A DNA stretch of 64,000 bases. Origin: Parcubacteria group bacterium. GTDB taxonomy: Bacteria > Patescibacteriota > Minisyncoccia > UBA10092. Positions 2,897 through 50,893 of this stretch are shown piece by piece. The notes below the pieces were generated by a model. It saw only the letters and a program-made list of their open reading frames with translations, did no database searches and had not been told where the DNA came from. The translations under genes and the position numbers were made by a program. The stretch is from contig JACPLW010000002.1 in the NCBI GenBank assembly GCA_016186325.1, positions 1,485-65,484 on the forward strand, written 5' to 3'. Each line of letters begins with the position of its first letter. Within the stretch, counting starts at the first letter, position 1.

Positions 2897-4738
2897 TTAC
2901 GCCCCAACCATAATCGCTTCAAACTCATCCCGTTCAATCGTTTCTTTTTCTATCAGCCGCATGGCAATTTCTTTAAGTTTTTTCCTTCTTTGGGAAATGA
3001 TTTTCTTTGCCGTGTCATAAGCAATAGAAAGAAAACTCGTAATTTCTCTGTCAATAAGCTGGGCTACCGATTCTGAATAGTTTTTTTCTGATCCGAGTCC
3101 TCTGCCTAGAAACACCATTTCGTTTTCTTCGCCCAAAGAAATTGGGCCTAGTTTTTCCGACATCCCAAATTCGGTAACCAACTTTCTCGCCAGGTCGGTT
3201 GCTTTTTTAAGATCACTCGCGGCACCGGTAGTAAGTTCTTTGAAAACAATTTTTTCGGCCGCATAGCCCCCCATCAAAACGGCAAGATCGGCCAAAAATT
3301 GGCCTTTGGAATGAAGATGGCGGTCTTCAATCGGGAGCTTTAAAGTATAGCCGGCGGCACTGCCACGGGAAACAATCGAAATTTTATGAACCGGGTCGGC
3401 ATTGGGCAAAACGCCGGCAACCAACGCATGGCCCGCTTCGTGATAAGAAGCAATTTCTTTTTCTTTTTCTGAAAGAATGTGGCTTTTGCGTTCCGGCCCT
3501 AAAAGAACTTTTTCAATGGCATAGTAAAAAGTTTCTTGCTCAACGATTTTTTTGTTCTGGCGGGCGGTTAAAATCGCCGCCTCGTTTATGACGTTAGCCA
3601 AATCGGCGCCGGAAAAACCCGGAGTTCTTTCGGCAACCCTTCTCAAGTTAACTTCCGGAGCCATGGGCTTATCAAGCGCGTGGATTTTTAAAATCGCCTC
3701 GCGATCGTTTATATCCGGAATATCAATCATGATTCGGCGGTCAAACCGTCCGGGGCGAAGCAACGCTGGATCCAAAATGTCGGGACGGTTTGTAGCCGCC
3801 ACAATAATAACGTTGGTCTCACGGTCAAACCCGTCCATTTCAACTAGAATTTGATTGAGCGTTTGCTCTCTTTCATCATGACCGCCGCCAAGGCCCGCGC
3901 CTCTTTGCCTGCCAACCGCGTCAATTTCGTCAATAAAAATGATAGAAGGTGCGAATTTTTTTGCCATATTGAATAAATCTCTAACTCTTGAAGCGCCAAC
4001 CCCGACAAACATTTCCACAAACTCGGAACCGGAAATGTAGAAAAAAGGCACGTTGGCTTCGCCGGCAACAGCTCGAGCTAAGAGGGTTTTGCCGGTGCCC
4101 GGCGCGCCTACAAGAAGAGCGCCTCTTGGAATTCTGGCGCCAATATCTAAAAATTTTTTTGGATTTTTCAAAAAATCAACAATTTCAACGAGTTCTTCCT
4201 TGGCTTCGTTCGCTCCGGCAACATCGGAAAACATAACTTTTTTGCGTCCATCAAACGGCCCGGAAAGTTTGGCTTGCGATTTGCCAAATGAAAATGCACC
4301 CATATTGGCGCGACCGGCCTGCCGCATCATGTACCATATTAAAAATCCGACGAAGATAAACGGCAAAATAATGGGAAGAACCGTGCCGGCCCAAAAACTA
4401 AAACCAACGCTTTGTTCAACTTGAATATTTACATTTTTTAACTTAGCGCCGTCAACGCCATAGTTTTTCAGGGTTTCGGAGAGCGAACTTTCAATTTCTT
4501 TTTTGGCAAAAAATTTATCGTTGTTTTTAGAAGTTATTTCCAAATCATCGTTTTTAACGACAATTTTCGAGATTTCTTCGTTATTTATTTTACTAACCAG
4601 CTCGGAAAGAGCAATCACGTTCGGCTTTTCAAAAGCCGAATTAAGATAAGCAAAAATAAACGCGATCAAAAATAACGCGCCCAAGACAATAAGAATCTGA
4701 TTGATAAACTTTTTATAATTGAATTTAATTATTTTCAT
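2897..4738 (-). CDS. ftsH: ATP-dependent zinc metalloprotease FtsH
   Basis: 613 aa; N-terminal TM segments; Walker A GAPGTGKT; Walker B IIFIDEID; zinc motif HEAGHA. Confidence 0.95.
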
Positions 4739-6208: not shown

Positions 6209-6394
6209 CTTTCCCTCCTTTTGGGCTTTTCTTAAGTTTTTTATTTATTTTAAAACTGATATAAAAGAGCTGATAAATATCATTTATCCCAGGAATGTTG
6301 GAAACCGAGCTTCCAACATGATAGATAACATTTATCAGGTCTTTTTAAAAATTTTCCCGCCTTTGGCGGGATCAGCCTCGGGCTGAAAAAATTT

Positions 6395-6425
6395 GGGGCG
6401 GCGAGACCGAGTGTCTCGCCGCCCC
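6395..6425 (-). terminator. intrinsic terminator of GC-rich gene 6453-7508
   Basis: GGGGCGGCGAGAC-CGAGT-GTCTCGCCGCCCC followed on the minus strand by CCAAATTTTTTC. Confidence 0.6.
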
Positions 6426-6452
6426 GCCGCCCCCGCCAATTGCGAAGGGTTA

Positions 6453-7508
6453 TTACTTCTTGCCGCGAGCGCGGTCGCGCTTCCAGTCGGAACTCTTATG
6501 AGTTCCGAACTCAGCGCCGAAGGTGCGCCGGTTCGCGGCGCCGCCTTCCAGCGAGCGCGCCTGGCTGACGCGCCCGGCGCTCTCCGCCTCACGCTTGACC
6601 ACGAGGCGAAGCCCCGCGACCGTATAGAACGTGAGAACTGCCCGCCGCTCCACCCAGTCAGGGTGGTCTTGCGGCAGATCCTTGCGGGCCCGGAAGTCCT
6701 CGAGGGCCTCCGAGCGGCACGTGCCGCAGCAGCGAATGCCGTAGGCGAGCGTCTTGCCCGCCTCCTCGATCTTGACCACTCCCGGAGGGATTTCTCCCGG
6801 AGGGATTTCCCACGGGAAGTTCTCCGCGTCGGCGCGGAGAAGCTCGCCGGCGACGATGTCGCCGCCGTCGCCCTTGCCGTGCTGACGGCGGTGAAGCTTG
6901 CCATCGTCTCCCCGCTCGAGGAGGAAACGCTGGGTCAGCTCCACCGGCTCGTTGTAACCGCGATGCCGCGGAGTGGCGCACGGCATCTTCTTGCCGGCCA
7001 CGAGCGGATCGGGATCCGGCTGCTCGGCGACCAGCTCCGCGATCGCCGCCTTCTCCGCGGCCAGCTCGGAAAGATAGTGCCTGAACATGGACCGGGTGAT
7101 CTCCACCCCGTCCTTGGCCTCGGCAGCAAACCGCTGCCGAATCCCACGGACCGTCGCCTGGCCCTTGTAGAGCCCGGCGTCCCAGTCCGCCTGCATCTCG
7201 CTGTCGAAGAGCAGCCGGTCGTCGTTGGCCGGCCTGCTGCTGCCGTCCTTCTCGGCCTTCTCGCGCTTGCCGCGCGAGATGATCTCGGCCGTCGCAGCCT
7301 CGATCTCAGCCACGGTCACGTCGGCCGGCATCCGCGGCTTGACCACCTCCGAGGCGGCCCACACCGCGAAACCGAGCGACCACCCCTGCTTCTCGGCGAT
7401 ACGCTTGAGCGCCTCGATGACGCCCTGCTGGCTGAACCGCTTCTTGTCATCCGCTGCTACAACTATCTTCCTGGGCTTGGCCATGATTGGCCTCCGTTGT
7501 CCCGCCAA
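6453..7508 (-). CDS. hypothetical protein (GC-rich island gene, no recognisable family)
   Basis: 351-aa ORF; SD ACGGAGG 7 nt before ATG; strongly GC-rich unlike its flanks; tandem 15-bp duplication encodes PGEIPPGEIP; own consensus promoter and terminator. Confidence 0.5.
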   Translation of the reverse strand: MAGQRRPIMAKPRKIVVAADDKKRFSQQGVIEALKRIAEKQGWSLGFAVWAASEVVKPRMPADVTVAEIEAATAEIISRGKREKAEKDGSSRPANDDRLLFDSEMQADWDAGLYKGQATVRGIRQRFAAEAKDGVEITRSMFRHYLSELAAEKAAIAELVAEQPDPDPLVAGKKMPCATPRHRGYNEPVELTQRFLLERGDDGKLHRRQHGKGDGGDIVAGELLRADAENFPWEIPPGEIPPGVVKIEEAGKTLAYGIRCCGTCRSEALEDFRARKDLPQDHPDWVERRAVLTFYTVAGLRLVVKREAESAGRVSQARSLEGGAANRRTFGAEFGTHKSSDWKRDRARGKK

Positions 7509-7594
7509 AGGCAGGGACTTTTGTATTGGTTGTCGCTCTTGAGGGCCGTTATTGGCCTCTTGAGCTTAAACCCTGTTTAGGAACTATTAACCAC

Positions 7595-14044: not shown

Positions 14045-14185
14045 CGACTTTACCATAGGAACTATTCTGCAGTGATCATATAGTGTATTTCAAAAGTTAC
14101 AACTTAAGAACCGATCGGAAATTAAGTTGTTAAAAATTTAAATTATGTCAAAACCTATAAAAGTTAAAAAGACATTAAAATAATT

Positions 14186-14223: not shown

Positions 14224-14715
14224 TCACCTGAGTCGCTTCTGGCAGCAACCCAGATCCCCCATCCATCCGCACGACGTGCGGAGATGGGCGATCCTACTGC
14301 TGCTCGTCACCCTGGGAGGAGACTCCATGGTGATGAACGGCACCGGCTCGACTGCCGCCGGCTTCCGTGGAGGAAGAGCGACGAGCTTGACGCTCACCAG
14401 CCGGCGCGGCCTCTCCTTCCTGGGCAGTGCCCAAGAATGGTGGCCGTTCGAAACTGCGTCCGCGGCCACACCAGCGAAGGTTGCGCCGTGCGCAACCTCC
14501 TCGAGGATTTCGCGGCGCTCCTTGCCCTGACGGTTGTAACCGCAGAGCAACTTGAACGGATCGGAACTATCGAGATTAAGGATAGACCCACGACGCGTGA
14601 TGCCGCGTGAGGCCTTACTCCCGATGAGTTTCGCATCTCCTCGCCGCCGCCGTCTCGTGTCCAGGCGGCGGTTGTTGCCGTCGTCGTAGGTGTTCCTGAA
14701 CCGCCCAAATTGCAT
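14224..14715 (-). CDS. hypothetical protein (GC-rich island gene)
   Basis: 163 aa; strong SD GAAGGAGGAGG 5 nt before ATG; Arg-rich; no recognisable family. Confidence 0.45.
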   Translation of the reverse strand: MQFGRFRNTYDDGNNRRLDTRRRRRGDAKLIGSKASRGITRRGSILNLDSSDPFKLLCGYNRQGKERREILEEVAHGATFAGVAADAVSNGHHSWALPRKERPRRLVSVKLVALPPRKPAAVEPVPFITMESPPRVTSSSRIAHLRTSCGWMGDLGCCQKRLR

Positions 14716-14750
14716 CTTCGCCTCCTCCTTCTTCTTTATTTAAAAAAACA

Positions 14751-14773
14751 GGGGGGGGTCGAACCGCCCCCCT
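14751..14773 (-). terminator. intrinsic terminator between the two GC-rich genes
   Basis: Minus strand GGGGGGCGGTTCGACCCCCCCC followed by TGTTTTTTT. Confidence 0.6.
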
Positions 14774-14779
14774 CGGATC

Positions 14780-15034
14780 CTAGACGACGACGCGCTTCGC
14801 GCTCGACGCGTGGAGCTCGTCGAGCGCCGCCTGGGTGAGGTTCTTGCGGACCCACATGTGGGCTCCGCAGAAGAGCGGCCGCACGCCCGGACGGCGCGCC
14901 TTCGTCGCGCGCTCGCCGCCGTTGCCCCGCTTCTGACGGCGGGGGTTGTCGCAATCGGCGACGCGGCACGACGCCTTGAAATGCGCGAGCCACTCTTCGC
15001 GAGGTGGAATGACGGCCACGATTTCGTAGCCCAT
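14780..15034 (-). CDS. hypothetical protein (GC-rich island gene)
   Basis: 84 aa; SD AAAGGAGAGAGG before ATG; Cys/His-containing. Confidence 0.45.
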   Translation of the reverse strand: MGYEIVAVIPPREEWLAHFKASCRVADCDNPRRQKRGNGGERATKARRPGVRPLFCGAHMWVRKNLTQAALDELHASSAKRVVV

Positions 15035-15109
15035 GGTCCTCTCTCCTTTTGCCCCGCAACTGCAGGGCTTGTAAGAGTTTCGTGAAAGAACGGTTAACTA
15101 TGCTTAATT

Positions 15110-20233: not shown

Positions 20234-21757
20234 TTACCGAGCATACTCAATAGCTCTCGTTTCTCTAATAACGTTAACTTTAATTTCGCCCGGGTATTTC
20301 AGTTCGCTTTCAATTCTTTTGGCAATTTCCTTCGCCAATTGAAGCGCTTTCAAATCATCAATAGTCTGCGGAGCAACGAAAACCCTGATTTCCCGGCCGG
20401 CAGAAATGGCGTATGATTTTTCAACGCCTTCAAAAGAGTTAACAATACCCTCGAGTTCGGTAAGCCGCTTGACATAGTTTTCAATCGTATCGCGCCGCGC
20501 GCCGGGCCGGCCTCCGGAAATGCCGTCGGCGGCAGTTACGATATACGATTCAAGAGTAGAAAAAGGATAATCCTCATGATGCGACTCCATTCCTCTAATA
20601 ACGGCCTCATCAACGCCGTATTTTTTAAGAATTTTTCTTCCCAATTCAACATGGGTACCCTCAATTTCATGGTCAACCGCCTTGCCGATATCGTGGAGCA
20701 AGGCCGCTTTTTTAGAAATCTCAACATTGGCGCCGAGCTCCTTTGCCATCATTCCGGAGATATGAGCCATTTCAATTGAGTGAATAAGAACATTTTGACC
20801 GTAGCTGGTGCGAAACGCCAAACGGCCTAAAAGTACAACAATTTCTTTCGGCAAGCCTAAAATGCCGACCTCGTAAGCCGCGGCCTCACCTGCTTCCACC
20901 AATTTTTTGTTTACCTCTTTTTTTGCTTCTTCAACTTTTTCTTCAATTCTGGCCGGTTGAATCCGTCCGTCGCTCATCAGCTTTATTAAAGCGGTTTTAG
21001 CAATCTCCCGCCTTAACGGATCAAATGAAGAAAGAGTTATAGCTCCGGGCGTTTCATCAACTATTACTTCCACGCCGGTTAATCTTTCAAGCGTGCGGAT
21101 ATTGCGGCCTTCTTTTCCGATAATCCGACCCTTTAAATCGTCTGACGGAAGGTTAACAGTAGAAGTAGTAATTTCGCTAACGTGAGAGCGGGCGTATCTT
21201 TGAACCGCCACAGTCATAATTTCCCGCGCCCTTTTTTCCAACTCTTCAATTCGGTTTTTTTCCATTTTGGAAATAGCCGCAACAAGATCGGTTTTAGAAT
21301 CTTCTTCTACTTTTTTAAATAAACTGTTCTTCGCTTCTTCGCCCGACATTCCGGCAACATGTTCAAGCATTTCTTCGCTTTTTGCTTTGAAAACCTCGGC
21401 TTCTTGCTTGATGGTTTTAACCGCGTTAACCTGGCCTTCAATGTCCGCCTTCAAGTTTTCGAGCTCGCTTTCTTTCTGATCAATTTTTCTAATTTGAGAG
21501 TTTAATCGCTCTTCTTGGCGCGTTAAAACCGCGAGTTTTTCCCGCTCTTGATTTTTCGCGTCTTCAAAAATTTTTACTGCCTGGTCTTTTGCTTGAAGCA
21601 AAAGTTCTTTGCTTTTGGTTTTTGCTTCTTCAAGCTGGTTCTTGATCTTAGTTTCTGCCGAATTTAAACTTCTTGTAGCAAAAATCTGGCGAGTAAGATA
21701 GCCCAAAGCCGCACCCAATGCCAAGGCCAGGGCGCCGATTATAAAATAGAAGGTCAT
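20234..21757 (-). CDS. rny: ribonuclease Y
   Basis: 507 aa; N-terminal TM; coiled coil; KH domain (IIGKEGRNIR); HD domain (LLHDIGK...HH). Confidence 0.9.
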   Translation of the reverse strand: MTFYFIIGALALALGAALGYLTRQIFATRSLNSAETKIKNQLEEAKTKSKELLLQAKDQAVKIFEDAKNQEREKLAVLTRQEERLNSQIRKIDQKESELENLKADIEGQVNAVKTIKQEAEVFKAKSEEMLEHVAGMSGEEAKNSLFKKVEEDSKTDLVAAISKMEKNRIEELEKRAREIMTVAVQRYARSHVSEITTSTVNLPSDDLKGRIIGKEGRNIRTLERLTGVEVIVDETPGAITLSSFDPLRREIAKTALIKLMSDGRIQPARIEEKVEEAKKEVNKKLVEAGEAAAYEVGILGLPKEIVVLLGRLAFRTSYGQNVLIHSIEMAHISGMMAKELGANVEISKKAALLHDIGKAVDHEIEGTHVELGRKILKKYGVDEAVIRGMESHHEDYPFSTLESYIVTAADGISGGRPGARRDTIENYVKRLTELEGIVNSFEGVEKSYAISAGREIRVFVAPQTIDDLKALQLAKEIAKRIESELKYPGEIKVNVIRETRAIEYAR

Positions 21758-22295: not shown

Positions 22296-22443
22296 AAAAC
22301 AAAAATAGCACCTGGTGCTATTTTTGTAAAGTGAGCGGGCCGCCTCGTCCGCCAACAAGGTTGGCGAGACGAGCGAGACATTGCACGCCCCTCCTTCGCC
22401 CCGCTTTGCGGGGCTTCGGACGGGCAAGCGTTAGAACTTGTTT
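22296..22443 (-). repeat. ~150-bp promoter-bearing repeat, copy 1 (family G)
   Basis: About 95 percent identical to 24361-24509; contains terminator-like hairpin AAAAATAGCACCWGGTGCTATTTTT, -35-like TTTACA and the GTGCAATGTC motif. Confidence 0.7.
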
Positions 22444-24360: not shown

Positions 24361-24509
24361 AAAACAAAAATAGCACCAGGTGCTATTTTTGTAAAGTGAG
24401 CGGGCCGCCTCGTCCGCCAACAAGGTTGGCGAGACGAGCGAGACACTGCACAACCCTCCTTCGCCCCGCTTTGCGGGGCTTCGGACGGACAAGCGTTAGA
24501 ACCTGTTTT
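24361..24509 (-). repeat. ~150-bp promoter-bearing repeat, copy 2 (family G)
   Basis: See copy 1; a partial copy lacking two internal hairpin modules lies at 23996-24045. Confidence 0.7.
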
Positions 24510-28419: not shown

Positions 28420-29502
28420 TCAAACCTTGCCTTTCGAAATTTTCGTATCATTTCTCCAGCATCCCCGAGTACTACCCAATCCATACCTATGCAACTTACT
28501 GTACAAAGTTTTTAGGGCTATTCCAAGGCTTATAGCGGTTAGTTTTTTATCACCGCCCGAATTTTTTAGCGCCGCCGAAATCATCTCAGCCTCGAGACTG
28601 GCCATGGCCTCTGAGAGAGATCTGCCCCTCTCTGGATGAGAAACTGCGCTATTGACTTGATTGATTTGGGCAGATTCGCCAACCGCCACCTCGGTGTCCA
28701 TCTTACCAAGCGCGGTTCGCACTGCCTCAACGGTCAAAACCCCAATGTCTTTATTTGAAAACAACTTTGAATGTTTGATAACATTTTTCAGCTCGCGGAC
28801 ATTGCCCGGCCAGCGGTGCTGGCACAAAAGCGCGAGCACGCCTTCCTCAATCTCTTCCTCTTCAGATTCAGATATCTGAAGGAAATGGCGCGTAAGAAGC
28901 CCGAGATCGCCATCACGTTCCCGAAGCGGCACAATTGGCACGGGGAATTCGTAGAGCCGATAGAAGAGATCGCTGCGAAACTTGCCATTCTTAACCATTG
29001 CGTAAAGATTTGCGCCCGTCGCAACAATCAATCGAACATCCACCGGCCTGTACTTCGTCTCGCCGATTCTGCGAACCTCATGATTCTCGGTAGCCCGAAG
29101 AAACCGAGCCTGAAGATGCGGCGGCATATCCTCGACCTGATCAATAAAGAGTGTCCCGCCATTCGCGGCCTCAATAAGGCCTATTGCTGGATGATGTGCG
29201 CTTGTGAATGCGCCTCGATCATGGCCAAAGAGCTCGTTCTCCATAAGTTCCATTGCTAGCGAGGCACAATCAACTATAATGAACGGCTCATTCGCGCGAT
29301 TACTCATCGCGTGAATCTCATGCGCGGCCACTTCTTTGCCGACGCCGGTCTCGCCCTGGAGGACAATGGTTTCCTCCGTCGGCGCGAGCTGCTCAAGCGT
29401 CCTCTTCATCTTCTGTATTCCGGCGCTTTCTCCTATAAATCTGGACCATCTTACTTGAGTCTCTGTTCGCAATCCAATGCCTTGCATCCCAATCCTATTC
29501 AT
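28420..29502 (-). CDS. sigma-54-dependent transcriptional activator (AAA+ plus Fis-type HTH, no receiver domain)
   Basis: Walker A GETGVGKE; GAFTSA; ESELFGH; C-terminal HTH; SD GAGGGGGA before ATG. Confidence 0.85.
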   Translation of the reverse strand: MNRIGMQGIGLRTETQVRWSRFIGESAGIQKMKRTLEQLAPTEETIVLQGETGVGKEVAAHEIHAMSNRANEPFIIVDCASLAMELMENELFGHDRGAFTSAHHPAIGLIEAANGGTLFIDQVEDMPPHLQARFLRATENHEVRRIGETKYRPVDVRLIVATGANLYAMVKNGKFRSDLFYRLYEFPVPIVPLRERDGDLGLLTRHFLQISESEEEEIEEGVLALLCQHRWPGNVRELKNVIKHSKLFSNKDIGVLTVEAVRTALGKMDTEVAVGESAQINQVNSAVSHPERGRSLSEAMASLEAEMISAALKNSGGDKKLTAISLGIALKTLYSKLHRYGLGSTRGCWRNDTKISKGKV

Positions 29503-34840: not shown

Positions 34841-35602
34841 TTATTCCGTTTTACCCTCAATTTTTTCAGGTCGGCATTTCCACAACATTTCAAATATTTG
34901 ACGCAAGGTTTTAGCCACATCCGGATTTTGCATAAAAACTCCTTGCATATGTCGAAGTGAAAATATCTGAATAAAATCATCACCGATTTCTATGGAAGAA
35001 TCGCTAAAATAATCTTTCGGATCCAGATATTTCATAGCCCATCCGAAATAACTCTCTCGCCCCTTATACCACGAAAGCGAAGGGTCATTCGGTGTCATGC
35101 CCCGAAGTTTAATGCCGGCTTTTTTGCAATCCTCATTCCATTGATGAAATATTTCCTGCATTTCAGGCGAAATATTTTCAGTTTCCCGCGCATAAAATCC
35201 GAGGATTTCCTGGCCGGCCATTCGTTTAACCGATTCGGTTATCATGTTTTTAATTCCTCGCTCGCCCTCATAATAGAGTGTTTTAAATTGCGGGCCGGTT
35301 TTATCTGCCATTGCCATAAGTTGAGGTAAAACACTTTTTGAAAGATTAAGGCGTTCTTCCGCTTCTGCAAAAAACTCATCAGGAGATTTTGCAATATATA
35401 GCTTTTTTCGTGTTCTGGGGATTTTTAACGCAAGACCCTTGTTTATAAGATTTTCAAGAATGACATATGTCGTGGGCCGCTTAACTTGCGCCTGATCAGC
35501 AATCATTTGAGCAGAACCGCGCCCAAATTGAACTAAAGCCATGTATACTTTAGCTTCTTTTTCATCAAGTCCTAAATTTTTTAACGCTTCTTCAATTTTC
35601 AT
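34841..35602 (-). CDS. TrmB-family transcriptional regulator
   Basis: N-terminal winged HTH LDEKEAKVYMALVQFGRGSAQMIADQAQVKRPTTYVILENL. Confidence 0.75.
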   Translation of the reverse strand: MKIEEALKNLGLDEKEAKVYMALVQFGRGSAQMIADQAQVKRPTTYVILENLINKGLALKIPRTRKKLYIAKSPDEFFAEAEERLNLSKSVLPQLMAMADKTGPQFKTLYYEGERGIKNMITESVKRMAGQEILGFYARETENISPEMQEIFHQWNEDCKKAGIKLRGMTPNDPSLSWYKGRESYFGWAMKYLDPKDYFSDSSIEIGDDFIQIFSLRHMQGVFMQNPDVAKTLRQIFEMLWKCRPEKIEGKTE

Positions 35603-35732
35603 AATAAGAACAGTATAGTCTATTTAAAAAAGTTTGTCAATAATTTTGACAAATAAATGTTGTAAAATGTAAAAATTGGCTTAAATTAAGGTAAAAGTTG
35701 AGCTTTTTTAGTTATAAATTCCGATATATTTA

Positions 35733-35761
35733 TTGACATAATCACAAATAAATGCTATACT
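35733..35761 (+). promoter_or_regulatory. consensus sigma70 promoter (TTGACA-17-TATACT) at the start of a GC-rich island
   Basis: TTGACAtaatcacaaataaatgcTATACT; ~120-nt GC-rich leader before the first SD. Confidence 0.65.
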
Positions 35762-35889
35762 ACAGGCAGAACATTAAGATTCATTAAACGTACTCCGAGC
35801 GCGAAAACTGATCTGGCACGCGAGAGGGCGCGGCGGATTGGCTAGTAGATAAGACTTGGGGGAATAACATCCATAAAGGAGGTGATTTC

Positions 35890-36180
35890 ATGGATAAACG
35901 GCACTGCTACCTTTCAGTAGCAGGCTGGCGCTACCCGCGTCATACCATCATTGATGGAAATGTCATCATGATGGAAGTGGCGATGGGAAGCTGCCAACAC
36001 TGTCCTACTTGCTCTCGGCGAGTAGAGATGGTGTCATCTCGGCTTCGGGGTACCAACTCCAAGTGGAGTTGGGAGGGGTTCGGTAACGGACTTTACCTCA
36101 AAGTCGAGATGCCCGATGACGCTGAACAAGTAGAACAATACTTGTCTCGGCTAATCGGAGTCTCTGTCTGGCTCAGATAG
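35890..36180 (+). CDS. hypothetical protein (GC-rich island ORF 1)
   Basis: 96 aa; SD AAGGAGGTGA 4 nt before ATG; CxxC..C motif. Confidence 0.45.
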   Translation: MDKRHCYLSVAGWRYPRHTIIDGNVIMMEVAMGSCQHCPTCSRRVEMVSSRLRGTNSKWSWEGFGNGLYLKVEMPDDAEQVEQYLSRLIGVSVWLR

Positions 36181-36352
36181 CTAGACAGAAAGCCAGTACC
36201 GGCGTCGGAGTGGAACCGACGTGACAACAGAAGGCTCGACTGACCCTCCACCAGTCGGACCAAACCAAGAGACGATTCCATATGCCGAGTCCGGTCGGCT
36301 TATCCCAGGAATCTCTCGGGGCGCGCGGCTGCCTTCAAAAGAAAACCGCAAT

Positions 36353-36418
36353 GGTCGAGCAAAAAACCGCTCGACCTCCCACCAAAGTTTTTGAAGCTTT
36401 CGAAAATTTTGGTGGGGG
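36353..36418 (+). repeat. family-B structured module, copy 1
   Basis: GGTCGAGC..GCTCGACC hairpin, then CCCACCAAAGTTT..AAATTTTGGTGGG arms with a G.U pair on the plus strand. Confidence 0.6.
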
Positions 36419-36474
36419 AATAATGAAAGTTCTTTAATCAAGAAATAAAAAAGAAGAGGGGGTGAGGCCTTATT

Positions 36475-36717
36475 GTGGTGAAATTCATCGTTACATGCGA
36501 TTGGATTGTCTTCGGAGATCGTCCTTTTGGCGGCGACATGCACACAGATGTCGCTCGCCGAAACGGCATCCCGAAAACATCCGTCCGGGGCGGTGGACTC
36601 TCCGATCTGACAGAGCGCCGGATATTTGGGACATCGTATGGTTTCGGATCATACGATCCCGAAGCAATCCGAGCGCTTCTGCCAGATTGGCAGATCGCCG
36701 AGCCCTCTGACTACTAG
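36475..36717 (+). CDS. hypothetical protein (GC-rich island ORF 2, GTG start)
   Basis: 80 aa; SD AAGAAGAGGGGGTGAGG 7 nt upstream of GTG. Confidence 0.4.
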   Translation: MVKFIVTCDWIVFGDRPFGGDMHTDVARRNGIPKTSVRGGGLSDLTERRIFGTSYGFGSYDPEAIRALLPDWQIAEPSDY

Positions 36718-36747
36718 AACAAATCCAAAATGGAAGGAGGTGAGTGC

Positions 36748-36882
36748 ATGGTAGAGGACATGGAGTTTTTCTTCGAGGAAGACGACATCGACATCTCCTT
36801 CGAGGAACTCGGACTCTGCCCCCACTGCGGAGCGGCAGATGACGAGGGATGTGAGGGTAGTTGCCCCAGCTTTCTGGAGTAA
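36748..36882 (+). CDS. small acidic Cys-rich peptide (44 aa)
   Basis: SD GGAGGTGA 5 nt before ATG; MVEDMEFFFEEDDIDISFEELGLCPHCGAADDEGCEGSCPSFLE. Confidence 0.4.
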   Translation: MVEDMEFFFEEDDIDISFEELGLCPHCGAADDEGCEGSCPSFLE

Positions 36883-37026
36883 CTGCCTCACTAACCCCAT
36901 CCATCGGGGATATAGGTGGAGTAGTCGGAGCCTGCGGTGTCCGACGAAAAACTCTGATGCAATGTTAGAGCGGCTAAAAAGCCGAATCAGGCTAGGAGAG
37001 TCCATAGAAACGGCAAAACTCTCCAC

Positions 37027-37107
37027 GGGTCGAGTGAAAAAAGAAATCTCGACCTCCTACCAAAGTTCTCAAAAAGTATTTTGAAAATTTTGGTAGTTTA
37101 TTTTTTT
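37027..37107 (+). terminator. family-B module copy 2 acting as intrinsic terminator
   Basis: GGGTCGAG..CTCGACC hairpin, then CTACCAAAG..TTTGGTAG stem followed by TTTATTTTTTT. Confidence 0.6.
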
Positions 37108-37242
37108 CTCTTTTTTAAGTGTTTGAAAAATTCGATTTGCCGCAATCGTTTTTTTGCTTCGGCAAGAGTTTTGTATGAACCGAAAGAACGGCCGGTAGTT
37201 TCTGATAAAACAACATACTTGCCTTTTATTTTTTTAATCATG

Positions 37243-37315
37243 GGGTGCCTAACGGGATTCGAACCCGTTCTTAGACTGCCACAGAGTCTAGTGCTGCCAT
37301 TACACCATAGGCACC
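37243..37315 (-). tRNA. tRNA-His (anticodon GUG)
   Basis: Acceptor GGTGCCT/AGGCACC; anticodon loop CTGTGGC; T-arm CGGGT TCGAATC CCGTT; no encoded G-1 seen. Confidence 0.6.
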
Positions 37316-37383
37316 ATACGCAAAGAAATATACGTTTTTAATTGACGCTTGTAAAATTTACCTGCCCAGAAACGAGGCATTAT

Positions 37384-37632
37384 TTATTCCTCTACCAAAA
37401 AAACTTCGAAGCCGTCGCCGATTTTTTCATCAACTTTTATTCCAACAATGTCGCCTTTTTTTGCCGAATCAATATCTTTATGTTCCATTTGCATTGAACT
37501 GACCGTTTGTTCAACTTCCTTGTCTCCGTGAACAAATTTAACTTTATCGCCAACAGCCAGCTTGCCTGAAAGCTCAATAATAGCAACACCTATGTTGCCG
37601 TAATAATGAGTAATTTTGCCGATTTTTTTCAT
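37384..37632 (-). CDS. small beta-barrel protein (EF-Tu domain-2-like, hypothetical)
   Basis: 82 aa; GDIVGIKV..GD beta-barrel-like signature. Confidence 0.4.
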   Translation of the reverse strand: MKKIGKITHYYGNIGVAIIELSGKLAVGDKVKFVHGDKEVEQTVSSMQMEHKDIDSAKKGDIVGIKVDEKIGDGFEVFLVEE

Positions 37633-37694
37633 AAAATGAATTTAATGCTAATTATAACTAATATATACCATAAAATTTCAATTATTACAATAAC

Positions 37695-37723
37695 TTGACA
37701 AGATTAGAGTTATTTGGTATAAT
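37695..37723 (+). promoter_or_regulatory. perfect consensus sigma70 promoter (TTGACA-17-TATAAT)
   Basis: TTGACAagattagagttatttggTATAAT; SD AGGAGAAG follows; drives 37762-37968. Confidence 0.7.
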
Positions 37724-37761
37724 TTAAATGCAGGATGTAAATTTCTCAGTAGGAGAAGAAA

Positions 37762-37968
37762 ATGCAGATCAGGAAGCAGTTGAGGCGGATGGCCAACGCG
37801 GCTAACGCGATCGCGGCGGGTCGCGAAAGGCCGATCACCCCGGAGCCAAACGGGTACGCCGGCGAGCATCACCGGATTCGCCACAAGTCCAACAAGGGAC
37901 CGCGGATGCGCGGTTCCGGGACCGCGCCGCGCCGCACGAAGAAGAAGGGTGGTGGCGCCGGCCAGTAG
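37762..37968 (+). CDS. small highly basic protein (GC-rich, hypothetical)
   Basis: 68 aa rich in R/K/G; perfect promoter, strong SD and strong terminator. Confidence 0.55.
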   Translation: MQIRKQLRRMANAANAIAAGRERPITPEPNGYAGEHHRIRHKSNKGPRMRGSGTAPRRTKKKGGGAGQ

Positions 37969-37987
37969 CCGGCGCCCCACACGCCTT

Positions 37988-38040
37988 GGAGCGATTCGTC
38001 CGTCAGTCGACGGACGGACTCGCTCCGGGGCGCTTTTTTT
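37988..38040 (+). terminator. intrinsic terminator
   Basis: GGAGCGATTCGTCCGTC..GACGGACGGACTCGCTCC hairpin then GGGGCGCTTTTTTT. Confidence 0.65.
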
Positions 38041-38431
38041 ATCCCCTCCTTACCACAGAAGCTTTGATGGTTTTGCAACCCCAATGTTGTTTTATAAGAC
38101 GAACGGTTTTTTTATCATCAAAATCCCGACAAGAATAGACGTCCATTGAAACGTAGCCTAACTCCGGCCAGGTATGAGCTGAAATGTGGCTTTCGTAAAT
38201 CATAACAAAACCAGAAAGTCCCCAATCGCCTTTTTTATCAGCTTCTTCGCAAAAAACCACGTAAGGAATCGTTAATTTTCGCATCCCGATTTTTTGGGGC
38301 AAATCGTTAAGAAAATCAAAAACTATTTTATGATTTTCGAGTTTTTTTCGCTCGATGCCGCGAGCGTCAATCATTAAATGTTTTCCGTAAACCTTATAGT
38401 TACTCTTCGATACGGTTTTTTTTCTGTTCAT
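38039..38431 (-). CDS. speH: S-adenosylmethionine decarboxylase proenzyme (SpeH type)
   Basis: Hallmark ESHISAHTWPE cleavage/active-site motif. Confidence 0.8.
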   Translation of the reverse strand: MNRKKTVSKSNYKVYGKHLMIDARGIERKKLENHKIVFDFLNDLPQKIGMRKLTIPYVVFCEEADKKGDWGLSGFVMIYESHISAHTWPELGYVSMDVYSCRDFDDKKTVRLIKQHWGCKTIKASVVRRG

Positions 38432-40456: not shown

Positions 40457-41133
40457 ATGGAAGTAGGAGTGCTGTTCTCAAGCGACGGCATTCTGGCGCT
40501 AAACAAACCGCCCGGGATGTGCAGTCAGGGACCCAAGACTTCGGATATCCCGGAGTTGTGGGAACTGCTACGAACACACCACCCTGGCGGTCATGTCGCT
40601 CATCGGATCGATCAGTACACATCTGGTATCAATCTAGCTGGTGCTTCAAAACGGCAGATCAGTTATCTGATGCGTAACTGGCACCAGATCACGCGAAAGA
40701 ACTACCTGTCTGTCTCATCAACAACCCGACGTGGAGCGAGAAGGTTGTGGACACGCCCCTCAAGGGTAAGTCCGCAATCACTGCGTTCACGGTGCTTGAG
40801 CGTTCTGGATCGTTGGCGTTGATTCAATGCCAGCTAGTCCAAAACGGGCGGACTCATCAAATCCGGCGACACCTGAAGTCGATCGGTGCACCGATCGTCG
40901 GAGACCGAAAGTACAAGGGTCCGACAACCAGGGTGCGGTCTGGTCAACTGCTTCATGCGTGGCGCATGGAGGTCAGACTGCCGGACGATTCTGGTAAGCC
41001 CGGCCCTTGGATTACCATTCAGGCGCCGATCCCCAACGATTTCAAGCAGATCAACTTCGATTGGAGTCGCTGGGATGCCAACGCCAACACAACGCTGGAG
41101 ATCTGGGCAGTTCCCTCCGGTTGGCGACACTAA
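40457..41133 (+). pseudogene. RluA-family pseudouridine synthase, frameshifted (GC-rich)
   Basis: Frame 1 carries HRIDQYTSGINLAG (RluA catalytic Asp motif); frame 2 (40747-41133) carries the RluA C-terminal half (GRTHQIRRHL..GDRKY); frames overlap around 40747-40822. Confidence 0.65.
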
Positions 41134-43465: not shown

Positions 43466-43488
43466 GCAACTGCGGGATGGCAAAACTA
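43466..43488. repeat. family-D palindrome CTATTGATGTCGGACATCAATAG
   Basis: Perfect 11-bp arms; related copies at 59145-59166, 60407-60429, 63332-63352. Confidence 0.6.
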
Positions 43489-43590
43489 TTGATGTCGGAC
43501 ATCAATAGTGGGTGTTGACAGCAAAGTTTAAAGTTATATGCTATGAGCATAAACAGAACTTTAAAATTTTAAGAGAGAAGGGTCTCTGAA

Positions 43591-50151: not shown

Positions 50152-50190
50152 TTACGGATTTTCAACCGATCGGAATAATGTCCGTAATTT
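50152..50190. repeat. 39-bp direct repeat copy 1 (ATTACGGATTTTCAACCGATCGGAATAATGTCCGTAATT)
   Basis: 38/39 identical to 50855-50893; internally an imperfect inverted repeat ATTACGGA..TCCGTAAT. Confidence 0.7.
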
Positions 50191-50854: not shown

Positions 50855-50893
50855 ATTACGGATTTTCAACCGATCGGAATAATATCCGTAATT
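50855..50893. repeat. 39-bp direct repeat copy 2
   Basis: See copy 1. Confidence 0.7.

Follow-up and report, generated by a model that had tools for sequence, protein, structure and literature searches.

We analysed a stretch of 64,000 nucleotides (nt) of genomic DNA from a Parcubacteria group bacterium, a member of the candidate phyla radiation (CPR); the whole stretch is called here the window, and positions are counted from its first letter. One segment of it, island A, with 51-55% GC versus ~37-42% in its flanks and in a genome of ~40% GC with several GC-rich islands, is, to judge from its predicted promoter, a strongly promoted three-gene operon. Comparison with other genomes places it as one member of a family of loci so far known only from CPR bacteria. 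The genes of these loci are accompanied by a structured module, which we call family-B and which, most simply, acts as an RNA on the sense strand. Our best guess, a tentative one to which we give somewhat less than an even chance, is that the module works between cistrons as a signal for RNA processing and stabilisation. The second gene of the operon, by its modelled structure, is a miniature PHPT1-fold protein. We found no description of the module, of the cassette organisation or of the families of the first two genes in Rfam, Pfam or the searched literature, and the latter yielded neither a CPR RNA motif like the module nor a TrmB-linked CPR operon.

The initial annotation, made from the letters of the sequence, had described in island A one promoter, three small coding genes led by Shine-Dalgarno (SD) sequences and two structured RNA modules. 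This picture was borne out, and all listed features lie at or near the coordinates given to them; the three open reading frames (ORFs) of 96, 80 and 44 amino acids (aa) in particular are present where they had been placed. Genes and modules of the operon, with H1 and H2 denoting the first two hairpins of a module, are the following:

35890-36180, plus strand: ORF1, 96 aa, SD AAGGAGGTGA at 35876-35885
36353-36437, plus strand: module copy 1, 85.4 bits, E = 7e-20
36353-36376, plus strand: H1 of copy 1 (GGTCGAGC/GCTCGACC), a hairpin in the minimum free energy (MFE) fold
36378-36418, plus strand: H2 of copy 1, a hairpin in the MFE fold, followed by AAAGTTCTTTAA at 36426-36437
36475-36717, plus strand: ORF2, 80 aa, GTG start, SD at ~36456-36466
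36748-36882, plus strand: ORF3, 44 aa, SD GGAGGTGA at 36736-36743
37026-37117, plus strand: module copy 2, 68.8 bits, E = 1.5e-15, H1 at 37026-37054 and H2 at 37055-37096

The core of the module, CTCGACCTCCYACCAAAG, occurs three times in the window versus 0.04 occurrences expected. When the 64 kb were searched filter-free with a covariance model built on 49 instances, exactly four copies were obtained, all in sense orientation and confined to two islands, the next best match reaching 14 bits. Both copies annotated in island A were recovered, with the scores given above; the antisense strand of copy 1 scored 35.4 bits. The remaining two lie in a second island, syntenic with the loci L059 and L107 (numbers with L designate loci from other genomes and metagenomes):

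60341-60938, minus strand: second island, copies 3 and 4 flanking an ORF of 98 aa, with a second TrmB-like gene upstream
60834-60938, minus strand: module copy 3, 56.0 bits by the covariance model
60341-60463, minus strand: module copy 4, 45.1 bits by the covariance model, outside the training set
62182-62919, minus strand: TrmB paralogue of the second island, upstream on the same strand

Copy 2 shows both hairpins in the MFE fold and is devoid of the GGG/H3 part; a T-run at 37097-37117 (TTTATTTTTTTCTCTTTTTT) comes directly after its H2. Because this long hairpin directly abuts the T-run, a terminator function of copy 2 is plausible, and copy 2 is probably the operon terminator too; 3' of it there is no downstream gene on the same strand. 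A simple terminator scan called none in island A, copy 2 being passed over owing to its AT-rich stem. The earlier idea of family-B as a terminator is therefore plausible for copy 2 and does not hold in general, since a distinct canonical terminator lies 3' of the terminal modules of L123, of L059 and of the second island.

Rfam searches of the window returned only tRNAs at the gathering score, and nothing meaningful at E up to 10 over 35600-38200; the covariance search that the initial annotation had recommended for the spacer behind ORF1 thus matched no family to leader, spacer or modules. A pattern scan of 185,579 genomes (one per species) gave mostly chance matches, the true family-B copies being found there only in metagenome-assembled genomes (MAGs) labelled as Kaiser-, Zambryski-, Niyogi- and Saccharibacteria. 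A stricter scan of metagenomes added 41 further loci, largely from groundwater. Viral contigs of IMG/VR contained zero copies, so that there is no evidence for a phage origin.

True copies share an upstream GC hairpin, YCCY, ACCAAAGTTTTYAA...TTGAAARTTTTGG, YGGG, a third hairpin and GTTCTTT, the module consensus being YCCYACCAAAGTTTTYAA...TTGAAARTTTTGGYGGG and then GTTCTTT. In order, they consist of a variable GC hairpin (H1), a conserved hairpin of 17-19 bp (H2), a variable hairpin (H3) and then AAUGUUCUUU; 3' of H3 the strand reads as single-stranded AA(U/A)GUUCUUU, after which the next SD appears. The 51 instances have 37 different stems for H1 and as many for H3, all at fixed positions, and in 49 copies RNAalifold counted 16-19 compensatory double changes for every one of four H1 pairs. 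H2 keeps a G·U pair in 49/49 copies; elsewhere in H2, U·G and U-A replace each other (30/18), as do C-G and U·G (33/15 and 27/20). Covariance-model scores of the antisense strand are about half of the sense scores. As the H2 wobble pairs would be mismatches on the other strand, the element is selected as a sense-strand fold, most simply as RNA.

A variant, B', has an unrelated H2 (CTSTTCYG...CAGAAGAGCG) in the same layout, with the H2/H3 overlap and the GTTCTTT tail; at least 17 copies were found, its inner stem covaries, and in the window it was not found above chance. L133 carries a third H2 sequence. The overlap lies in the final 3-5 nt on the 3' side of H2 (for example in L048, L104 and L114; TGGG in B, GAGCG in B'), which belong to the 5' arm of H3 as well, so that the base of H2 and the top of H3 are mutually exclusive. 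Judging by these variants, architecture matters more than sequence for the module.

Some other identities were considered for the module and rejected. As a promoter, H2 offers TTGAAA without a consistent -10 after it, and for a tRNA-like cloverleaf around H1-H3 a conserved closing stem is missing. That the TrmB-like protein uses H2 as an operator in double-stranded DNA is made unlikely by the strand-specific G·U pairs and by the unrelated B' in the same operon. Against H2 as a CRISPR or TIGR-type repeat stands a spacing of 0.5-1.3 kb that is filled by ORFs.

A start at a median of 42 nt 3' of a sense-strand stop codon was seen for 46 of the 54 modules, and 30/54 are followed by an SD-led ORF of 45-166 aa whose start lies at a median of 57 nt after H2; the other 24 stand at operon ends. 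L048, a Kaiserbacteria contig, has three modules within 8 kb. In L133 the TrmB-like gene and the three ORFs of island A recur, arranged as ORF2 - B' - ORF3 - module - ORF1 - B; this is a circular permutation of the three cassettes of the window, and modules stand at the joints. The blocks aligned by blastn between the two are 35786-36395, 36584-36717 and 36734-37074, and each cassette comprises an ORF with its own conserved 5' and 3' untranslated regions (UTRs). ORF1-like genes also occur in the second-island-type loci L101, L107 and L129, and an ORF2-like gene in L127, whereas other arrays encode zinc-ribbon proteins, a sigma-70 region-4 protein and weak receiver-like proteins. A TrmB-like gene is present at 22/55 module loci (13/23 among those of at least 5 kb), placed either divergently, as in island A, or upstream on the same strand, as in the second island.

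Further segments were noted around these arrays. Proteins of ~105-110 aa containing cysteines are encoded directly 5' of family-B modules in three unrelated loci (L074:6802-7134, minus strand; L091:847-1173; L112:2070-2387, minus strand); they form another cassette family without a Pfam match. A conserved non-coding segment, GGGGGTGGTTRYCTGGATC..GCTTAA.TAGGGCGA, lies 5' of the first L123 module (~6030-5800, minus strand) and ends the L091 contig (~1775-1882); it may be another structured RNA of these islands. The second island (60341-61760, minus strand) opens with a GC-rich leader of ~450 nt in which a long-range stem, CTCTCCACTAAAGCCCATG ... CATGGGCTTTAGCGGGGAGA, is kept in L059, and continues with a 32-aa ORF, copy 3, the 98-aa ORF and copy 4. 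This leader resembles a structured RNA, with no Rfam family at the gathering threshold.

One plausible explanation of this anatomy, and the one we tentatively prefer, would involve processing of the polycistronic RNA. An endonuclease would cut within the H2 duplex, in the manner of RNase III, or, alternatively, after the lone G of the A/U-rich tail, AA(U/A)G|UUCUUU, in the manner of RNase Y. The upstream cistron would then end in stable hairpins that block 3' exonucleases, and after a cut in H2 the downstream cistron would begin at or near H3. Each small gene would in this way obtain its own mRNA lifetime and dosage, independent of its position in the operon, and such position-independent expression would suit mobile cassettes. 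Copy 2, having lost H3 and gained a T-run, would also end transcription of the operon, and the TrmB-like protein would probably bind the palindrome at 35633-35653 and control the divergent promoters.

Intercistronic processing hairpins for RNase III are found in the early region of phage T7. RNase Y sites are known to lie 3' of a G in an A/U-rich region beside structure (PMC4608709), and the enzyme cuts within an intergenic region of the saePQRS operon (PMC5449607). Like the T7 hairpins and the saePQRS site, the modules are structured and lie between cistrons of one transcript. Features expected of a processing site are there: H2 has 17-19 pairs (about two helical turns), similar in size to such duplexes, a lone G stands in an A/U-rich strand beside structure, and the flanking hairpins could protect the products. 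Unlike the sites of RNase III and RNase Y, the module has three abutting hairpins, the H2/H3 overlap and the invariant G·U, and it also ends operons and marks reshuffled cassettes; its cleavage is a prediction. In 14 loci an RNase Y gene, 69-100% identical to that of L123 (L123:929-2458), lies a few kb from the module operon, usually convergent with its end, a proximity that could be functional or inherited.

Several observations weigh against this interpretation. Strand-specific wobbles would be tolerated in folded single-stranded DNA as well, which makes a role at the DNA level possible. The H2 sequence is conserved far more strictly than nuclease recognition by structure alone would demand, and its unvarying G·U together with the CCYACC...GGYGGG base suggests a sequence-specific partner, just as the overlap of the H2 base with H3 in both B and B' suggests a conformational switch for which a processing model has no need. 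The linkage to RNase Y may be inherited gene order in one clade, and in the window the RNase Y gene (20237-21661, minus strand) lies 14 kb from island A. The TrmB-like gene is absent from 10/23 long loci. Finally, the ranking of the processing model and its rivals was made from anatomy alone.

One alternative is that the modules are attC-like recombination sites of cassette exchange, working by excision and reinsertion or by homologous recombination at H2, their RNA-like look being secondary. In integrons the tyrosine recombinase IntI acts on attC sites with R''/L''/L'/R' boxes and a GTTRRRY core. Integron cassettes, like those described here, are small ORFs, mostly of unknown function, in arrays with an imperfect hairpin element of conserved structure after each of them, read from one head promoter beside a divergent gene (which recalls intI/Pc), and their order varies between genomes. 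Several features accord with exchange: the cassettes of the window are circularly permuted in L133, where modules mark the joints; ORF1-, ORF2- and ORF3-like genes are variously combined in L101, L107, L123, L127 and L129; and H2 keeps its sequence from lineage to lineage, whereas at joints that are homologous in other respects the H1 on either side differs. We nevertheless consider it unlikely: neither an integrase nor another recombinase was found in any locus examined (no tyrosine recombinase among the neighbours scanned), the gene next to the promoter is a helix-turn-helix (HTH) regulator, R/L boxes and the R''/R' GTTRRRY core are missing (the tail is GTTCTTT, with no purine-rich R' core), the cassettes carry their own UTRs and SDs, B and B' share one array despite their unrelated H2, and ordinary homologous recombination could produce the permutation with no dedicated function. 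Improbable to the same extent is a combined function, in which the three-hairpin element would be both a cassette-exchange joint without an integron-type integrase and an RNA signal by which the transcript is cut into separately stable mRNAs, H2 with its invariant G·U being the site recognised by a dedicated protein; if true, this would amount to an undescribed CPR gene-cassette system that carries small regulatory-protein genes behind one promoter. A selfish nature of the modules, as palindromic repeats of the REP/BIME type (repetitive extragenic palindromes, bacterial interspersed mosaic elements) or akin to miniature inverted-repeat transposable elements, with no function in the operon, appears less probable still. 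Enterobacterial REP/BIME are repeated palindromic units in intergenic or 3' regions of operons that can stabilise the upstream mRNA, and the modules, too, are repeated palindromic units between or 3' of operon genes, present in several near-identical copies per locus (three in L048), with other small palindromes nested in the H2 loops of copy 4 and L133 and with an H2 sequence kept across distant CPR lineages. They are, however, not dispersed, there being only four in 64 kb, always sense and all within the two TrmB-linked islands; these three-hairpin composites lie at a set distance from the stop codon and from the SD that follows, the covariation of H1 and H3 and the conserved B' architecture indicate selection on structure, and neither target-site duplications nor, among neighbours scanned with Pfam, a gene for a RAYT-like transposase was found.

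Two further explanations keep the module an RNA. It might be a cis-regulatory switch for the downstream gene, where the base of H2 and H3 compete for GGG (GAGCG in B') and a protein or ligand shifts the balance, exposing or masking the downstream ribosome-binding region. That most B copies, and the unrelated B' as well, share nucleotides between the 3' base of H2 and the 5' arm of H3, that the CUCC(Y) linker 3' of H1 resembles an anti-SD in B, that an SD-led ORF follows 30/54 modules at a fairly constant distance, and that the invariant G·U suggests a specific binding partner would suit such a switch, which we still regard as having a low probability, given that 24/54 modules stand at operon ends without a recognisable downstream ORF, that B' is devoid of the anti-SD-like linker, that just 3-5 bp are exchanged, and that no candidate ligand or RNA-binding protein is linked. 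The modules might, with a similarly low probability, be partial terminators or attenuators that decrease expression along the operon, copy 2 being the full terminator: a GC-rich H1 comes right after each stop codon, copy 2 meets a T-run and ends the operon, and a T-run lies within 70 nt in 9/54 copies. Most copies, on the other hand, have no U-tract after H1 or H2, the scan of the island gave no terminator, terminal copies elsewhere need the separate canonical terminators mentioned above, and three hairpins with a conserved H2 exceed what termination would need. A comparison can also be made with the put RNA of phage HK022, a two-hairpin cis-acting antitermination element found once per operon, upstream of terminators. 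As in put, hairpins in tandem with almost no linker act, in the case of the module presumably, in cis on a transcript from a strong, phage-like promoter; unlike put, the module comes after every cistron, the last included. The element thus shares features with intercistronic hairpins, extragenic palindromes and attC sites and falls under the definition of none of them.

Transcription of island A would be governed by the following elements upstream of ORF1:

34841-35602, minus strand: gene for a TrmB-like winged-helix regulator of 253 aa (Pfam PF01978), divergent from the operon
35640-35612, minus strand: divergent promoter of the TrmB-like gene, 11/12 consensus
35633-35653: perfect palindrome TTTGTCAA-N5-TTGACAAA with 8-nt arms, 100% complementary, overlapping the -35 of the regulator promoter
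35733-35761, plus strand: operon promoter TTGACA-17-TATACT with TG before the -10, 11/12 consensus positions
35768-35775, plus strand: start-site-proximal motif AGAACATT, directly 3' of the -10 in the window, L008, L123 and L133

The consensus promoter reported by the initial annotation was found in place, and equivalent ones exist in L008, L123 and L133. In the TrmB-like protein, residues 7-74 match Pfam TrmB with E = 1.4e-14, and the NCBIfam match comprises the N-terminal HTH only. The palindrome recurs, as AGTCAA-N5-TTGACT / TAGTCA-N7-TGACTA, in the equivalent intergenic region of L123 and L008 and is likely a candidate operator of this regulator. The motif AGAACATT is the reverse complement of AATGTTCT, which lies 3' of most modules (36426-36437 in copy 1). 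Base pairing between module tails and the 5' end of the transcript would thus be possible; alternatively, the two motifs could be half-sites of one DNA-binding protein. Covariation favouring one of these readings was not seen. The short motif AAGTTCTTT is uninformative alone, as it is too common in this AT-rich genome.

The first cassette consists of ORF1 and two conserved flanking regions:

~35768 to the ATG at 35890, plus strand: leader from the predicted start, ~122 nt, including TGGCAC at 35814-35819
35786-35889, plus strand: conserved 5' UTR of the ORF1 cassette, with TGGCAC at 35814-35819 and the SD of ORF1
36181-36352, plus strand: GC-rich structured 3' UTR of the ORF1 cassette (the 'spacer'), conserved in L133 and L091

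The measured length of the leader agrees with the ~120 nt given initially, TGGCAC included. Nucleotide homology with L091 and L133 starts at 35786/35787, and in L133 this 5' UTR comes after a module, not after the promoter. The leader alone is not unusually structured relative to shuffles (z = -0.64); it is kept in four loci, for which RNAalifold gave 20 consensus pairs, 4 of them with compensatory changes. A sigma-54 site at TGGCAC was rejected, as had been anticipated: where such a promoter would read TGGCAC-N5-TTGCW, it is followed by GCGAGAGGGCG, with no TTGC (-12) element, reads TGGCAT in L133, and sits within a conserved stem of the UTR. The window also encodes a sigma-54-dependent activator, AAA+ plus Fis-type HTH (28420-29502, minus strand; E = 1.7e-58).

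The spacer had been described as ~200 nt with three hairpins. Its strong structure was confirmed, as together with copy 1 (36181-36474) it folds far better than shuffles (z = -4.75, 0/200), while the hairpin count is only approximately right for 36181-36352. The segment is kept 3' of ORF1 in L133 and L091, with one compensatory change in the first hairpin, and is absent from the more distant ORF1 of L008. Covariation, which the initial annotation had proposed to look for, thus exists to some degree in both leader and spacer. The suggestion that the spacer is a free-standing non-coding RNA was not upheld, because it moves with ORF1 when the gene order changes: leader and spacer alike accompany ORF1 in L133, and are attached to it in L091 too, which makes them UTRs of the ORF1 cassette.

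ORF1 itself has homologues in 72 clusters, all hypothetical proteins from Parcubacteria-type genomes with no Pfam domain. W13, R17, E29 and three cysteines are invariant, and from this conservation we regard ORF1 as a CPR-specific family of small proteins with three invariant cysteines. Pfam, PHROGs and NCBIfam gave nothing above threshold for ORF1, ORF2 or ORF3. Contigs that encode the exact ORF1 or ORF2 belong to a single sample series and match the window with 100% identity, and so carry no variation. All three ORFs are conserved elsewhere, contrary to the lack of coding conservation that would have spoken against the initial annotation.

ORF2, whose 79-aa form has been deposited as 'MAG: hypothetical protein HYW79_00650 [Parcubacteria group bacterium]', has in L008 a homologue with 71% identity within a shared order of TrmB-like gene, ORF1 homologue, family-B module and ORF2. 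Nucleotide differences between the two number 16/9/38 by codon position, and 23/58 codons encoding the same amino acid have changed synonymously. A profile search of 1.84 billion representatives returned 34 relatives of ~80 aa, in which H23, G41, S54 and Y60 are invariant and K3 nearly so. The AlphaFold2 model of ORF2 (predicted local distance difference test, pLDDT, 97) has a beta-sheet flanked by two helices, as the PHPT1 fold demands, and its best four Foldseek matches are PHPT1 structures. Alignment of the family with human PHPT1 by hhalign (E = 8e-4; the numbering of the PHPT1 sequence used agrees with PMC4817053) pairs H23 with His53, S54 with Ser94, GGG with LGGGR and GTSYGFG with GYSMAYG, and K3 matches Lys21 by position in the first strand. 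The active-site residues of PHPT1 are Lys21, His53, Arg78 and Ser94 (PMC4817053), of which Lys21, His53 and Ser94 align with the most conserved positions of ORF2.

By this model ORF2 is a miniature PHPT1-fold protein, and the residues it retains make it probably a phosphohistidine phosphatase. Like members of the PHPT1/Janus-Ocnus family (PF05005; PDB 2nmm, 2ai6), it has a GGG and a G-x-S-x-x-x-G motif and, by alignment and position, counterparts of Lys21, His53 and Ser94. It differs in size (80 aa versus 125 in PHPT1), in having neither the N-terminal ~18 residues nor, judged by its shorter length and the alignment, the loop at ~residues 29-39, and in being bacterial and linked in an operon to a TrmB-like regulator; no bacterial PHPT1 relative was found described in the literature. 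Two points speak against this assignment. The position of Arg78, after GGG, is not conserved in the ORF2 family, and ORF2 has no match to PF05005 at the Pfam threshold: 9/29 family members match Janus/Ocnus below it (best 19.6 bits, E = 0.001, for a gathering threshold of 23 bits), and the ORF2 of the window does not match. A sequence-profile search of the PDB with the family did not find PHPT1 either, and the relationship came out only by fold search and hhalign. As ORF2 would probably remove phosphate from phosphohistidine, the cargo of the operon is probably regulatory.

ORF3 is the shortest gene of the operon, and its cassette includes one further region:

36883-37025, plus strand: conserved structured 3' UTR of ORF3, by homology with L123 and L133

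This region has 77-89% nucleotide identity with L123 and L133, where it lies directly 3' of the ORF3 homologues, and together with copy 2 (36883-37110) it folds better than shuffles (z = -5.33). In a program-made list of ORFs, ORF3 begins at an ATG further upstream and has 50 aa; since homologues begin with MVED or MEED, the 44-aa start is supported. Homologues with their own SD and start codon are present in L123/L114, L118 and L133, and share the core LGLC..CGA.DDEGCEG.CPS.LE with four cysteines, C-x2-C...C-x3-C (CPHCG...CEGSC). The coding signal is weaker than that of ORF2, because the nucleotide sequence, too, has been kept over much of the core. To judge by its cysteines, ORF3 is probably a metal-binding mini-protein. 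CPxCG-type knuckles are typical of small zinc-binding proteins, and like the C(P)XCG zinc-finger micro-proteins of Haloferax, ORF3 has fewer than 70 aa, a CPHCG knuckle and four conserved cysteines (PMC10716476); unlike in these, there is a single canonical CPXCG, the second pair being C-x3-C, and the N-terminal half is long and very acidic.

The same composition, a 44-aa peptide with an acidic N-terminal and a four-cysteine C-terminal half, had led the initial annotation to see in ORF3 the flavour of a leader-plus-core precursor of a ribosomally synthesised and post-translationally modified peptide (RiPP), in which case island A would be a minimal RiPP locus. We hold this to be very improbable. 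Conservation runs opposite to that of typical precursor families, as the cysteine-rich half is nearly invariant and the acidic half has diverged, with an in-frame indel, and the knuckles point to zinc binding instead. The lack of an adjacent maturation enzyme, already noticed then, was confirmed for ~10 kb around ORF3 in the window and extends to its homologues in L123/L114 and L133. The neighbours in the window are HtrA, TrmB, tRNA-His, AdoMet decarboxylase, MazG, Mur ligase, GIY-YIG and HIT, those in L123 are ClpP, RNase Y, ORF6N, a PaaX-like protein and the CCA-adding enzyme, and L133 contains TrmB and the three ORFs only.

Outside these operons, other islands of high GC content (up to 69%) lie in the window, and every one of them has a consensus promoter: 6335-7560 (minus strand) with an ORF of 351 aa, 14224-15059 (minus strand) with ORFs of 163 and 107 aa, and 37762-37968 (plus strand) with a 68-aa basic protein. 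For these ORFs there was no convincing Pfam match and none in PHROGs or NCBIfam, and the three islands contain no family-B module. A palindromic element around AACCGATCGGAA occurs 3 times versus 0.12 expected (14109-14120, 50164-50175, 50868-50879) and belongs to a repeat of 64 nt (50151 and 50855). The terminal module of L133 has a related copy inserted into its H2 loop (~2570-2610), and another is found in L059 (~4660-4700). The palindrome family AACTATTGAT...ATCAATAGTT lies at 43484-43509, 60395-60420 and 63329-63354, one copy being within the H2 loop of copy 4. A direct repeat of 148 nt, 96% identical and 2 kb apart (22296-22443 and 24361-24508), includes the GC-rich hairpin-like segment CCCTCCTTCGCCCCGCTTTGCGGGG. 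In a GC-rich stretch, the gene for an RluA-type pseudouridine synthase (40457-41133, plus strand) is split into two overlapping frames of 121 and 128 aa, which points to a programmed frameshift, a sequencing error or a pseudogene with a frameshift.

CPR bacteria account for much of bacterial diversity, yet few of them have been cultured, and the majority of their small genes lack an annotation. The present analysis indicates that a structured-RNA family outside Rfam organises small-protein operons in several CPR lineages. As a candidate RNA-control signal, family-B opens a way to study how these organisms regulate genes after transcription, and possibly how they reshuffle small genes. The families of ORF1 and ORF3 can be annotated as real genes. 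The PHPT1/Janus fold is known mainly from animals, and here it would occur in a compact bacterial form of 80 residues linked to a transcription regulator. CPR bacteria have very few classical two-component systems, and the setting of ORF2 suggests phosphohistidine signalling in them; ORF2 may also serve as a minimal scaffold for studying the PHPT1 enzyme class.

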